A program made the position numbers and the translations under genes. Below the pieces are notes generated by a model, which searched no databases, was not told where the DNA came from, and saw only the letters and a list, made by a program, of their open reading frames with translations. Positions 401 to 39,451 of a stretch of DNA of 64,000 nt are shown here, piece after piece. Source of the stretch: a bacterium. Its GTDB lineage: Bacteria > Electryoneota > Electryoneia > Electryoneales > Electryoneaceae. Positions within the stretch are counted from its first letter, which is position 1. Each line of letters begins with the position of its first letter. The stretch lies in the NCBI GenBank assembly GCA_963669175.1, contig OY769902.1:4640001-4704000 (forward strand), in the 5' to 3' direction.

Positions 401-1777
401 ATGCATGCCTATCGGTCGGTAACGATTTTATCGGCGATCATGGCGCTGTTTGCCTTGGGGTATTTCATCGGGTGTTCGGAGGAGGATGACAATCCGACTG
501 ACGTAGACCCGACCGATACCACCGGGTATCACGCGCTCAGTGAGGCGTCCTGCGCAGGGTGCCACACGAACGAAGCCATGTTGAAGGCAACGGTCGAAGA
601 GGACAGCGATGACACGCCGCCCTCTTCGGGCGAGGGCTGAGGCGGCAGTGTACCCGAGCTGGAAGCTTGGGAAAAAGTATTTATCGGTGATGATGGCGGT
701 GAAATGTTCCTGGCAGATGTACATGGCGCCCAGGGATGTGTTGCCTGCCACAGCGGGCAGGATGGTGAGCTGACCAAGGCGGACGCCCATGAAGGCATGG
801 TGAAGGATCCTTCGGTGGCGTACGAGGAAACCTGCGGCGCGTGTCATCCGGGAATAGCCTCGAACTTTGCCACCAGTTTGCATAGTTCTTTTCACGGCTA
901 CGAAACCCTGTTTGAGGCTCGTTCCGGCATCTCTTTCGAATCCCATCCGGAAATCGAAGAAGAGTTCGCCAATGAGTGCGGAGCGTGTCATACAACATGT
1001 GGTGAATGTCATGTAAGCCGTCCGCGTAGTGTAGAAGGCGGCCTGGTGCAGGGGCACCGGTTCATGCCGGTTCCGAGCCAGACGAATCAGTGTACCGCAT
1101 GCCATGGATCACGTGTCGGTGAGGAATACCTGGGCCAGCGTGATGGGTATGCCGCGGATGCACACTATGTCCCCATGGGCAAGAACTGCATGTTCTGCCA
1201 TGACGGACATGAGATGCACGGCACCGGGACAGAAGTTGGCACTCGTTACGAGCAGGCCAATATGCCGCGTTGTGAGGACTGCCATAGCGGTGTTGAGACT
1301 ACCAACGACTACCACACTCAGCACTGGGGCCAGTTGCAGTGCCAGGTATGTCACAGCCAGGACTACAAGAATTGTAACAAGTGTCATGTGGGCGGCACCG
1401 GCGTGCGTGAACCTTCATACATCACTTTCAAGATCGGCAAGAACCCGATTCCGGATGAACGTGAATATGAATATGTCGTGTTGCGTCATATCCCGATCGC
1501 TGAAGACACCTACGAGCCCTGGGGCATAACTGATCTGCCGGATTTCGCGGTGTTGCCGAACTGGAAATATGCCAGCCCGCATAATATCAGGCGCTGGACA
1601 GCACGCACTGACACTAGTGATGGCCTCGGCTGCGCATATGTGTGTCACAATTCAGCGGAAACAGATTCAACGGCCAACTGGTTCCTGCGCCAGGCAGACA
1701 TTGATACTCTGACTGCCGCTGAGCAGGAAGCGAACAGCCCGTATATCGTTCCCGACGGCCCGCCGCCGTGGAATTGA
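401..1777 (+). CDS. Selenocysteine-containing multiheme cytochrome c lipoprotein (458 aa, Sec80; 10 CxxCH + 1 CxxxCH)
   Basis: ORFs 374..640 and 704..1777 are in the same frame, separated only by TGA 638-640. The read-through gives SSGEG-U-GGSVPELEAWEKVF with no further stop. ATG 401 follows GGAGA. Lipobox ...LGYFIG|C. Heme motifs CAGCH, CVACH, CGACH x2, CGECH, CTACH, CMFCH, CEDCH, CQVCH, CNKCH and CAYVCH. SECIS-like hairpin 12 nt after the TGA. Confidence 0.85.
653..671 (+). promoter_or_regulatory. Bacterial SECIS-like hairpin of the multiheme cytochrome
   Basis: CCCGAGC-UGGAA-GCUUGGG, a 7-bp stem starting 12 nt after UGA 638-640. Same geometry as the selD hairpin. Confidence 0.75.
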
Positions 1778-1993
1778 TTTACATGATTCACGATTCGTTA
1801 TGCGGGACAGGCCGCTGGAAGAACTGTCCCGCTTTCATGTAAAGGATGGAATTTCACCTGCAACATTCTTGCGGGGTGAGCATCCAAAGCAGTATGTGTC
1901 AGCGAAATCTGACACAATTTGCACAGAGAAAAACGGGAATACCCATACAAACAAGACCGCCGAAAGGGGCGGTCCAACGAGAGGAAAGTGGAC

Positions 1994-2989
1994 ATGAAGC
2001 TATTGAAGTCGCTTACTTGGCTGATGGTAATGTTACTGGCCATCGGGATGGTAGGCTGTTCGGACGATGATGATGATGATGGTAACCCAACAGGCCCGAC
2101 CACGAAGGATTTTTACACCGACCTGTTTGATGCAGGAAACACCTACTACACAGGTGGCACCAAGAACATCCTGGCGGACTCGGTATTTGCGCACATGAAT
2201 GCCGGTGTGGACATGTTTATCATTGACTATCGTACCGCAGGTGATTTCTCCACACTCGGTCACATTGACGGCGCCGTAAACTGGTCCATTGCTGATCTGA
2301 CAGAAAACCTGTCCCAGATCCCGGCAGACGCTGAAATTGTCAATGTCTGCTATACCGGCCAAACCGCTTCCCAGGCGACAGCAGTATTGCGTTTACTGGG
2401 TTACAATGCCTACAACCTGAAGTTTGGAATGTGCGGCTGGACGGCTGATGAAACCATCAACCTTGGCAAATGGACTACAGGTCTGACGCCGGGTGGCCAG
2501 ACATTGGTTACTGAAGCCACAACCCCTACTGCGACGTATGATGTCCCGATGATCGAAGAAGATGAAGACATGACTGTCGATGAAATCCTTCTTGATCGTC
2601 TCGCTGCTTATGTGGATGTCGCCTCTACACATAATATCAGTGCAGCATCCCTGTACGAAAACCTGAATGATGGTGACACCTCCAACGATCCGTTCATCAT
2701 CAACTACTGGTCAGAAGCCATGTATGACATGGGTCATATCCCCGGCGCTGTCCAGGGTAGCCCGATTACCACGGAGCTTCTGTCTCATATCGAAGATGGC
2801 CAGCAGGTTGTTGTCTATTGCCACACCGGTATGACTTCCAGCCAGTTAATCGTATGGCTGAACGTCCTGGGCTACGATGCTTACAGTATGCTGTTCGGCA
2901 TGAATGCGATCGATCAGGATTCTTTCGGCGATGACCTGACAACCTACCATGCACCGAGCAGTAATTTCCCGGTCGTGACCGGTAACTAA
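1994..2989 (+). CDS. Tandem rhodanese-domain lipoprotein (sulfur/selenium transferase)
   Basis: Lipobox MVG|C followed by an Asp-rich linker. Two rhodanese domains (GHIDGAVN...VCYTGQTAS and GHIPGAV...YCHTGMTSS), both keeping the active-site Cys. ATG 1994 follows GAGGA. Confidence 0.9.
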   Translation: MKLLKSLTWLMVMLLAIGMVGCSDDDDDDGNPTGPTTKDFYTDLFDAGNTYYTGGTKNILADSVFAHMNAGVDMFIIDYRTAGDFSTLGHIDGAVNWSIADLTENLSQIPADAEIVNVCYTGQTASQATAVLRLLGYNAYNLKFGMCGWTADETINLGKWTTGLTPGGQTLVTEATTPTATYDVPMIEEDEDMTVDEILLDRLAAYVDVASTHNISAASLYENLNDGDTSNDPFIINYWSEAMYDMGHIPGAVQGSPITTELLSHIEDGQQVVVYCHTGMTSSQLIVWLNVLGYDAYSMLFGMNAIDQDSFGDDLTTYHAPSSNFPVVTGN

Positions 2990-3031
2990 GCTGGTTCGAC
3001 ATCCCGTGTTATCGGGATCGACTTTATTTGA

Positions 3032-3073
3032 ACAGGACCACGAGCTGACAGGCTTGTGGTCTTGTTTGTTTTT
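3032..3073 (+). terminator. Rho-independent terminator after the cytochrome-rhodanese pair
   Basis: ACAGGACCACGAGC/GCTTGTGGTCTTGT stem followed by a T-rich tail. Confidence 0.75.
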
Positions 3074-3076
3074 GGA

Positions 3077-3136
3077 GTTTGAAAGTTTAAAAGTTTGAAA
3101 GTTATAAAGTTATAAAGTTATAAAGTTGGAAAGTTA
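3077..3136. repeat. 8-nt-period microrepeat (AAAGTTAT-like)
   Basis: agtttgaaagtttaaaagtttgaaagttataaagttataaagttataaagttggaaagtt. Reverse-complement copies at about 28037-28074 and 31107-31152. Confidence 0.8.
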
Positions 3137-38401: not shown

Positions 38402-39451
38402 ATGAAAAACGGGTTCAGGCTGACTGGCTTTTCCCGTTGTGTCGGCTGAGCTTCCAAGTTGGATCCGGCGGTGCTGGATCGAATTTTAAAGGATCTGCCT
38501 AAATCGAATGATCCCAACCTGTTGGTTGGCACAATTCGCCCGGACGATGCCGGTGTGTACCGTCTGCAGGATAACCTTGCCCTCGTGCAGACACTGGATT
38601 TCTTCACGCCAATCGTGGACAATCCGTACGATTATGGACGAATCTCGGCGGCAAACAGCTTGTCGGATGTGTATGCCATGGGCGGACGTCCGATCACAGC
38701 CATGAACATCGTCTCCTATCCACATGGCGACCTGCCGGATGAGGTACTGGCAGATATTCTTCGTGGTGGATTTGACGCGTGTGAAGAAGCAAAAGTGGCC
38801 GTTTGTGGCGGGCATTCTGTTACGGATAAAGAACTGAAGTTTGGCCTGTCCGTGACTGGACTGGTAGATCCCGGGCAGATGTTGATCAAAGGCGGGGCGA
38901 AACCGGGCGACCTCCTGGTATTAACCAAGCCATTGGGATCAGGCCTGATTGCCAACGCGATGATGAATGATGCCGACGTGGATGAGGCTGTTAAAGCAGC
39001 CACAGCGATTATGGTACGTTTGAACCGTGCTGCCGCTGAAGCGGCGGTAAAGGTTGGCGCTCGTGCCGCAACAGATGTTACCGGGTTCGGTTTGTTGGGA
39101 CATGCACGGGAGATGGCGGAAGCGGCAGATGTAACTTTCCATTTCCAGGCATCGAAACTACCCGTCATTGAAGGCGCCATGTGGGTAGCAGAATCCGGGT
39201 CATACTACTCCGGTGGCGAACGTCGGAACCGGGATTTTGTCGACCCGACCCTTTCCATGGCGGAGGATATCCCGGAATCCTATCAGCGTATTATGGCGGA
39301 CCCGCAAACATCTGGGGGACTGTTGTTAGCTATCAATCCCGAATCTTTTGAAGTATTTCAAGACGAAATAAACAAAAAAGGCGAAGAATGCTGGTTGATT
39401 GGAACTGTAGAAAGTCGTTCTCCTGTCAGAGTTCGTGTTTCAAACGTGTGA
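38402..39451 (+). CDS. selD: Selenide, water dikinase (selenophosphate synthetase), Sec-containing
   Basis: MKNGFRLTGFSRCVG-U-ASKLDP, with TGA 38447-38449 at the catalytic Cys/Sec position. DDAGVY, DFFTPIVD, ANSLSDVYAMGG, TDVTGFGLLGH, DPQTSGGLL. Alternative ATG at 38387. Confidence 0.95.
38462..38480 (+). promoter_or_regulatory. SECIS-like hairpin of selD
   Basis: GAUCCGG-CGGUG-CUGGAUC, 12 nt after the UGA. Confidence 0.8.

Follow-up and report, generated by a model that had tools for sequence, protein, structure and literature searches.

A predicted selenocysteine-containing 11-heme lipoprotein cytochrome encoded next to a double-rhodanese lipoprotein

INTRODUCTION

Among the closest described systems to the one discussed here is MccSep (ExtKL, GSU2937-2936) of Geobacter sulfurreducens, published on 26 August 2026, a soluble periplasmic tetramer with five hemes in which selenocysteine (Sec) 325 lies in a D-G-U-P loop of the C-terminal immunoglobulin (Ig)-like domain, next to a His/Cys-ligated heme (C239), and which is a proven polysulfide reductase that also reduces selenite, less well (PMC13510729). 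Its gene cluster encodes a rhodanese lipoprotein, ExtH, according to one part of another report (PMC6148476). Before August 2026 there was no multiheme selenoenzyme of known function, and it was MccSep that then showed polysulfide respiration by Sec and heme together. Here, we describe a locus in a stretch of 64,000 nucleotides (the window; GenBank assembly GCA_963669175.1, contig OY769902.1, positions 4,640,001 to 4,704,000 of the forward strand) from a bacterium of the phylum Electryoneota, where a single gene (401-1777, forward strand, window coordinates) almost certainly encodes a lipid-anchored c-type cytochrome with 11 heme sites and one Sec, and the next gene (1994-2989, same strand) a lipoprotein with two rhodanese domains.

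The cytochrome-related selenoprotein families named in the part of a May 2026 review of prokaryotic selenoproteins used here are ExtKL (NF040886), the GSU2204 family (NF041027) and the tetrathionate reductase family (TIGR04315), the last with Sec members annotated in GenBank, and the sole 'GUG'-type motif in that part is that of a selenobacteriocin (PMC13188914). An 11-heme Sec cytochrome was not found in the same portion of the review, searched by term (PMC13188914), and the Sec cytochrome/rhodanese family was not found in the literature searched, where supplementary lists of the MccSep paper or of large screens could mention its loci. Existing selenoprotein models do not recognize the cytochrome either: it is matched at E ≤ 0.01 neither by NF040886 (cut-off 250 bits) nor by NF041027, the model of the GSU2204 family of CXXCH selenoproteins, and TIGR04315 (cut-off 375 bits) does not match the locus at 401-1777 even at E ≤ 10. 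In the genome as a whole, NF040886 reaches only 28 bits, at another locus.

A SINGLE GENE WITH AN IN-FRAME SELENOCYSTEINE CODON

Under translation table 11, open reading frame (ORF) calling divides the locus into an ORF of 88/79 residues and one of 357 residues, which begins at ATG 704 and lacks an export signal. An earlier note on this DNA had read the two as one frame broken by a single TGA, and this reading holds. From ATG 401 to the terminal stop TGA (1775-1777), the sole interruption is the TGA at 638-640, and the 21 codons that separate it from ATG 704 (641-703, directly 5' of that ATG) are stop-free, as the note had stated, and translate as GGSVPELEAWEKVFIGDDGGE. The joined product has the predicted 458 residues and 11 heme sites (10 CxxCH and one CX3CH). 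It begins with a signal peptide and a lipobox ending in ..YFIGC (401-475; lipid-modified Cys25, codon 473-475), followed by an acidic linker, the first heme site (C51-A-G-C54-H55, 551-565), a Pro/Ser/Gly-rich stretch and the motif G-E-G-U-G-G, in which the in-frame TGA corresponds to U80 (...SSGEG-U-GGSVPELEAWEK). Heme sites 2-11 (C113 to H416) occupy 737-1648, the last being a CxxxCH (C411-AYV-C415-H416, 1631-1648) where many relatives have a plain CxxCH; all these features are on the forward strand. Read from the sequence, as are the signal peptide and the last heme site, the division of labour claimed earlier is thus borne out: the part upstream of the TGA provides the lipobox and one CxxCH, while the downstream part has nine CxxCH and one CxxxCH and no signal peptide. 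In an alignment of 116 rows (A3), the lipobox Cys is conserved in 62 of the 64 rows that cover it, C51, C54 and H55 in 68 of 68, and the motif Cys and His of sites 2-11 are invariant or nearly so. Apart from the Cys of the heme motifs and of the lipobox, this alignment has a single conserved Cys/Sec, at position 80.

In the rival explanation, the TGA would be a genuine stop or result from an assembly error, and the locus would hold two genes, one for a monoheme lipoprotein of 79 residues and one for a decaheme protein of 357. This is in accord with the two ORFs returned by table-11 calling, and with the fact that the real terminator of the cytochrome gene is also a TGA. It seems difficult to reconcile with a downstream ORF that lacks any export signal, since c-type heme attachment requires export, and with the conservation at the protein level of the 21-codon stretch that leads from the TGA to ATG 704. 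As to a possible error in the reads, which the earlier note had raised, the contigs of two runs of one sample are identical over 401-2989 and agree with the TGA; however, these runs are possibly the source of this DNA, so they provide no independent support for the TGA, and this must be counted as a point against the one-gene reading.

The codon can also be compared across relatives, although related genomes are not independent samples. When the joined protein was searched against 79 genomes of the phylum (a match being E ≤ 1e-20), 24 genomes matched, the window's own included, with identities from 100% down to 41%. All 24 loci have the architecture of the window gene and all 24 have TGA at the same aligned codon, within [G/S/E]-[E/D]-G-U-G-G, which is more than chance. 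A scan across bacteria with one genome per species gave at least 584 relatives among the 600 stretches listed, and in the best 80 of these, all from other phyla, the aligned codon is TGA in 50, TGT or TGC in 28, CGG in one and GGC in one. TAA or TAG, either of which the earlier note had set as grounds for rejecting its claim, occurs at this codon in none of the 24 and 80 loci. Conservation extends to both sides of the TGA, as would be expected of one protein, with heme site 1 and G-E/D-G upstream and G-G-x-x-P/S-x-x-E-x-W-x-K-V downstream. Such a pattern of TGA and Cys codons argues against a true stop. The labels of the best 80, taken from records of metagenome-assembled genomes as deposited and in some cases plainly unreliable, are Calditrichota, KSB1, Eisenbacteria, Krumholzibacteriota, Gemmatimonadetes, Phycisphaerae, Dehalococcoidia, Anaerolineae, Thermodesulfobacteriota, Ignavibacteria, Bacteroidota, Chloroherpeton and others, and by these labels the family spans at least 10 phyla, including Gemmatimonadota, Planctomycetota, Chloroflexota and Ignavibacteriota.

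The 81 rows of a maximum-likelihood tree fall into two sides, separated with a support of 100 in the Shimodaira-Hasegawa-like approximate likelihood ratio test (SH-aLRT). One consists of 27 rows (labelled Bacteroidota, Ignavibacteriota and Chlorobiota), all with Cys, and the other of 54 rows, which comprise 51 Sec forms and three nested single losses (L052 with Cys, L045 with Arg and L109 with Gly). At least four changes between Sec, Cys and other states are required, and since the tree is unrooted no claim is made as to which state is ancestral. With its Sec and Cys forms, the family is a natural system in which to ask why selenium is retained.

A side observation concerns the Arg variant (L045:3001-4299), a close relative of a Sec form in which the Sec codon is CGG, one base from TGA. 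It is also among the few loci without a rhodanese gene within 3 kb, and this copy may be decaying or repurposed.

THE HAIRPIN DOWNSTREAM OF THE UGA

Bacterial selenocysteine insertion sequences (SECIS) have a small apical loop holding a G, at a distance of 16-37 nt from the UGA, as described in part of the review mentioned above (PMC13188914). The earlier note had pointed to a SECIS-like hairpin here, and a candidate is present on the forward strand at 653-671, starting 12 nt after the TGA, with an 8-bp stem and a GGA loop (CCCGAGCU-GGA-AGCUUGGG) that lies 20 nt downstream of the UGA. Taken alone, the fold of 91 nt of the window is unexceptional (z = -1.43), and the weight for a putative SECIS lies in comparative evidence, not in this single fold.

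The hairpin is retained in two registers. In all 11 loci of the window's family-level group the register of the window is kept, with 7-8 of 8 pairs formed and one pair varying between A-U, C-G and U-A, while in the remaining 13 loci of the phylum the helix is shifted by ~2 nt, with 5-6 of 6 pairs formed. Among 36 distinct Sec-type sequences of other phyla, 84.6% of the cells of the shifted helix, there 9 bp long, pair, both sides change in six of the nine pairs, and one pair is GC in 21, CG in 7, AU in 4 and UA in 2, a covariation that is somewhat favoured by the fact that the structure was derived from the same 36 sequences. In 500 shuffles, not one of these values was attained, and partners slid along the sequence pair in 38-51% of cells. 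Three of the 50 distinct Sec-type sequences (L071, L087 and L117) fit neither register at the thresholds used. Over the 36 nt that follow the codon, the median fold energy is -11.5 kcal/mol in the 50 Sec loci and -4.5 kcal/mol in the 28 Cys loci (Mann-Whitney p = 2.6e-7, a value that ignores the relatedness of the loci and, to that extent, tells against leaning on it). A hairpin is also kept in one Cys subgroup (..LPEMEAW..) and in L052.

The genome (5.45 Mb, one contig) has the complete machinery for Sec. Besides selA (539.2 bits), selB (347.8 bits) and a tRNA-SeC (selC) with anticodon tca, it has a gene for selenophosphate synthetase, selD, which is in the window as previously noted (38402-39451, forward strand; TIGR00476, 355.6 bits, with one TGA inside the match), is not part of the operon and itself encodes a selenoprotein (Sec codon 38447-38449, CVG-U-ASK; the gene also ends with TGA).

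The conserved TGA, the Cys homologues, the conservation on both sides, the covarying hairpin and the presence of selA, selB, selC and selD thus argue together for one gene with Sec. We hold it as nearly certain that 401-1777 is one lipid-anchored 11-heme selenoprotein gene in which the UGA at 638-640 is decoded as U80 with the help of the downstream hairpin. Two separate genes, on the other hand, are extremely improbable, and this rival is already contradicted by the present analysis, the covarying hairpin and the complete Sec machinery adding to the evidence given above.

A LARGE FAMILY OVERLOOKED BY GENE CALLING

The family is large. HMMER found 514 proteins at E ≤ 0.001 among 1.84 billion representatives, and 29 of the best 150 begin 4-11 residues after the Sec position, while a collection of 5.8 billion proteins yielded 1778 at E ≤ 1e-20. 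In the latter, query coverage is at most 81% in 112 of the best 120 matches because gene callers stop at the TGA, and the collection's own call for the window gene is the 357-residue downstream ORF (P0152), so the suspicion that standard callers would split this gene was well founded. Public names are 'hypothetical protein' or, wrongly and from one source, 'thiosulfate/3-mercaptopyruvate sulfurtransferase'. Pfam assigns to the cytochrome generic cytochrome c7, c3 and c554 domains only, nothing in NCBIfam comes near a cut-off on it, and ESM Atlas gives generic 'multiheme c-type cytochrome' cluster names only. This is a large, widespread Sec cytochrome family that is split and labelled hypothetical in databases, and its recognition corrects gene models in hundreds of genomes and adds a large family to the prokaryotic selenoproteome.

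THE RHODANESE PARTNER

The gene at 1994-2989 (forward strand) encodes a lipoprotein (lipobox ..MVGC, Cys22) with two rhodanese domains (Pfam PF00581, 82.5 bits over two stretches), the active-site Cys of which would be Cys119 (2348-2350) in the loop CYTGQT and Cys276 (2819-2821) in the loop CHTGMT. It is followed on the same strand by a terminator-like hairpin with a T-run (3029-3078) that ends the two-gene unit; this element and the signal peptide of the lipoprotein were read from the sequence. A lipoprotein with two Cys-active rhodanese domains and then a terminator is what the earlier note had described. Among distinct partners, Cys22 is kept in 88 of 90, C119 in 90 of 90 and C276 in 89 of 89.

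Synteny is equally well conserved. A double-rhodanese homologue lies directly downstream on the same strand in all 24 loci of the phylum, and such a homologue is encoded within 3 kb in 74 of the 80 other loci, downstream in 68 and upstream in six. Two database relatives (P0021 and P0068) even have rhodanese and cytochrome fused, which also speaks for the partnership. Of the six loci without a rhodanese match, two are at a contig edge and the Arg variant L045 is among the other four. The cytochrome and the lipoprotein with two rhodanese domains are a conserved two-gene unit in which both predicted active-site Cys are kept.

Some features of the pair may be mentioned for their own sake. The spacer between the two genes (1778-1993) is unusually long, 216 nt as compared with 0-140 nt in most related loci, and holds a G+C-rich hairpin at ~1954-1975, just 5' of the ribosome-binding site of the rhodanese gene. 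Acidic stretches directly follow the lipobox Cys in both proteins (C-SEEDD.., 473-500; C-SDDDDDD.., 2057-2090) and are common to many relatives. We take these stretches to resemble the surface-export signal of Bacteroidota lipoproteins.

FOLD AND RELATIONSHIP TO OCTAHEME TETRATHIONATE REDUCTASE

An AlphaFold model built from the 116-row alignment has a mean predicted local distance difference test score (pLDDT) of 89.3 and a predicted template modelling score (pTM) of 0.83. The earlier note had placed Sec on a flexible arm, which the model supports in part: the linker of residues 71-80 is less ordered (pLDDT 65), but residues 81-90 are ordered (pLDDT 87). In the model, Sec is placed where the less ordered linker meets the ordered segment, not on a clearly free arm.

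By far the best match among solved structures is octaheme tetrathionate reductase (OTR; 1sp3_A), with a VIA-align Z of 9.3 and a root-mean-square deviation of 4.2 Å over 270 residues (model 105-459), the next match having a Z of 4.2. Foldseek returned 1sp3 at E 0.013 with a probability of 0.95, no match being found at E ≤ 0.001. Weaker fold matches are to MtrA-type cytochromes, OcwA and an S-layer undecaheme cytochrome (Z 3.8-4.2), and when solved structures were searched by sequence, nothing beyond weak matches to NrfA appeared (E 0.009 or worse). The MccSep entries (9WT8-9WTC) were not among the structure-search matches, which is evidence neither for nor against a relationship.

A true OTR gene, without in-frame stop, is present elsewhere in the genome (G000:C1:4823982-4825241, L120; TIGR04315, 592.5 bits), ~183 kb from the cytochrome gene. 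The OTR family occurs in 28 of the 79 genomes of the phylum; a full-length OTR with an in-frame TGA was found in none of these 28, the only TGA being in one split, half-length match. Profile alignment of the cytochrome family with the OTR paralogue of this genome by hhalign gave a probability of 96.3% and E 1.7e-9 over 220 columns, although the CxxCH motifs shared by multiheme profiles can inflate such scores, a caveat that weighs against the relationship. Heme sites 1, 2, 3, 5, 7, 8 and 9 of the cytochrome are paired with OTR sites 1-7. The stretch between heme sites 1 and 2 of OTR holds K56 and C64, which we take to be the lysine ligand of the active heme and an active-site Cys, respectively. 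U80 falls in the equivalent stretch, beside an 11-residue insertion, and K56 is opposite D97, in a variable loop of the cytochrome family, the alignment being unreliable at both places. A position of Sec near the catalytic heme is thus a hint, nothing more. The cytochrome does not belong to the OTR family, to which it is structurally related only remotely.

PROPOSED FUNCTION OF THE PAIR

On balance, the pair seems likely to handle sulfane, polysulfide or tetrathionate-type S-S chemistry at the cell envelope, by analogy with MccSep and ExtH; we infer the substrate, the direction and the hand-over between Sec and rhodanese. The rhodanese would be loaded with sulfur, in the form of a Cys persulfide, from polysulfide, elemental sulfur, thiosulfate or tetrathionate, the conserved Sec of the cytochrome (Cys in some lineages) would attack the S-S bond to give an Se-S intermediate, and electrons from the heme chain would reduce this intermediate, the reverse, oxidative direction being also possible. 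Since there is no second conserved Cys such as that of MccSep, the rhodanese Cys would be the natural second thiol. The idea in the earlier note that Sec could ligate a heme, or shuttle S/Se from rhodanese to heme chain or back, is likewise plausible.

Several observations weigh against this scenario. The lack of a second conserved Cys like C239 means that the MccSep mechanism is not transferable as such. Position 80 is occupied by Trp, Leu, Tyr, Met, His, Arg or Gly in part of the family, and in two fusions of rhodanese and cytochrome, one with N-terminal rhodanese domains (P0021) and the other with rhodanese domains at the C-terminus, after the cytochrome (P0068), this position is Trp and Tyr, respectively, so that the link with rhodanese is not strictly dependent on Sec or Cys. 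Finally, the mature protein is ~48 kDa (434 residues at ~110 Da) with 11 hemes, which by this estimate leaves ~4.3 kDa per heme.

Such a low protein mass per heme, in a range that includes ~4.3 kDa, is described in part of a review as typical of pure electron carriers (PMC7096707), which would be in accord with a cytochrome acting mainly as an extracellular or periplasmic electron wire, its Sec/Cys80 being non-catalytic, e.g. redox-sensing or structural. The weak fold matches to MtrA-type cytochromes, OcwA and the S-layer undecaheme cytochrome, and the existence of members without Sec or Cys, point the same way. However, costly Sec has been kept in 51 rows of many phyla with only three nested losses, which argues for a catalytic role, a near-obligate rhodanese partner is unexpected for a plain wire, and the closest fold by a wide margin is that of an enzyme, OTR. 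We consider the wire very improbable.

Another rival holds that Sec80 (or Cys) is the sixth, axial ligand of one heme (His/Sec) and that the cytochrome interconverts thiosulfate and tetrathionate in the manner of TsdA or SoxAX, the ligand leaving the iron and being itself modified, with the rhodanese as an accessory. Alignment A3 shows nine conserved His outside the motifs (H108, H130, H161, H219, H255, H273, H305, H308 and H394) for 11 heme sites, so two hemes need another ligand or are five-coordinate. Members with His (P0032) or Met (P0015) at position 80 carry classical heme ligands there, the closest solved fold is that of a tetrathionate reductase, and His/Cys-ligated hemes are catalytic in both TsdA and MccSep (PMC13510729). 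Most of the non-Cys residues found at position 80 (Trp, Leu, Gly, Arg, Pro, Ala and Val) cannot, however, ligate iron. We know, moreover, of no His/Sec-ligated heme, and all in all axial ligation appears rather unlikely.

The pair might instead reduce oxyanions of chalcogens or metalloids, such as selenite or tellurite, either to detoxify them or to respire. MccSep does reduce selenite, if less well than polysulfide (PMC13510729), and parts of two reports link the Geobacter ext cluster to selenite and tellurite reduction (PMC5877670, PMC6148476). Library matches of the rhodanese include a chromate-resistance ChrE-type model and rhodanese models of selenouridine synthase, all of them weak and below cut-off. 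By contrast, the spread of the family in sediment and groundwater lineages and the two invariant rhodanese sites fit abundant sulfur better than trace selenium or tellurium, and no resistance or transport genes adjoin the pair, which makes oxyanion reduction improbable.

If S-S chemistry is indeed what the pair carries out, it is conceivable, and we suggest this only tentatively, that it represents a second, independently built class of multiheme selenoenzyme, an 11-heme OTR-like lipoprotein in which Sec would take persulfide sulfur directly from a tandem rhodanese for reduction by the heme chain. In view of the acidic stretches behind both lipobox Cys, the pair could then be located on the cell surface, acting on insoluble elemental sulfur. 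If all this is true, and given the many phyla on the labels, sulfur respiration or oxidation in sediments, and the demand for selenium there, would have a major route that has gone unrecognised.

SURROUNDINGS OF THE GENE PAIR

The neighbouring genes look unrelated to the operon. Upstream are genes for proteins with type-9-secretion sorting tails, a transposase and an adenine deaminase, and downstream are der and priA-like ORFs; no porin (ExtI), ExtJ, resistance or transport genes adjoin the operon. Given this and the terminator, the cytochrome and rhodanese genes are a stand-alone pair.

Directly after the terminator there is an A/T-rich tandem repeat (3076-3136) with a period of 8 and ~7.6 copies (consensus AGTTAGAA), which also scores at periods 16 and 24. 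The transposase, of the DDE type (L119:7378-8598; G000:C1:4633378-4634598), lies among secreted-protein genes ~6 kb upstream of the operon.

COMPARISON WITH KNOWN SYSTEMS

Rhodanese-assisted sulfur respiration is known from Sud/Psr. In both cases, a terminal sulfur oxidoreductase is accompanied by a rhodanese that is exported and has an active-site Cys, whereas in the window the oxidoreductase is a heme and Sec protein rather than a molybdopterin enzyme, and the rhodanese is a tandem-domain lipoprotein with an active-site Cys in both domains. The idea that a rhodanese may supply sulfur to enzymes of energy metabolism is itself cited in part of the ext cluster literature (PMC6148476).

With OTR, a sulfur-compound reductase, the cytochrome has the fold and the arrangement of the heme core in common at the superfamily level, but OTR has eight hemes, as opposed to the 11 sites found here. 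To our knowledge, OTR has neither a lipoprotein anchor nor an obligate rhodanese partner.

MccSep comes closest in its composition. Both it and the window cytochrome are multiheme c-type cytochromes with one Sec from an in-frame UGA, both are split by gene callers, have a SECIS-like hairpin just 3' of the UGA and have Cys-type homologues, and both are encoded alongside a rhodanese-family lipoprotein. They differ in that the window cytochrome has 11 heme sites rather than five and a lipoprotein anchor, that its Sec is near the N-terminus (residue 80 of 458), in G-E-G-U-G-G between heme sites 1 and 2, and that a counterpart of C239 is lacking from the 116-row alignment; nor is there a porin (ExtI) or ExtJ gene nearby, in contrast to the ExtHIJKL locus. 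Since heme number, Sec site and second Cys all differ, the cytochrome is not a member of ExtKL, in line with the different family suspected in the earlier note. In function it appears analogous to ExtKL, with a different scaffold, and it provides a candidate that can be tested for a role in sulfur-compound redox chemistry in sediment lineages of which little is known. The combination of Sec, multiheme cytochrome and rhodanese lipoprotein thus recurs on a scaffold other than that of MccSep, and in many more phyla.

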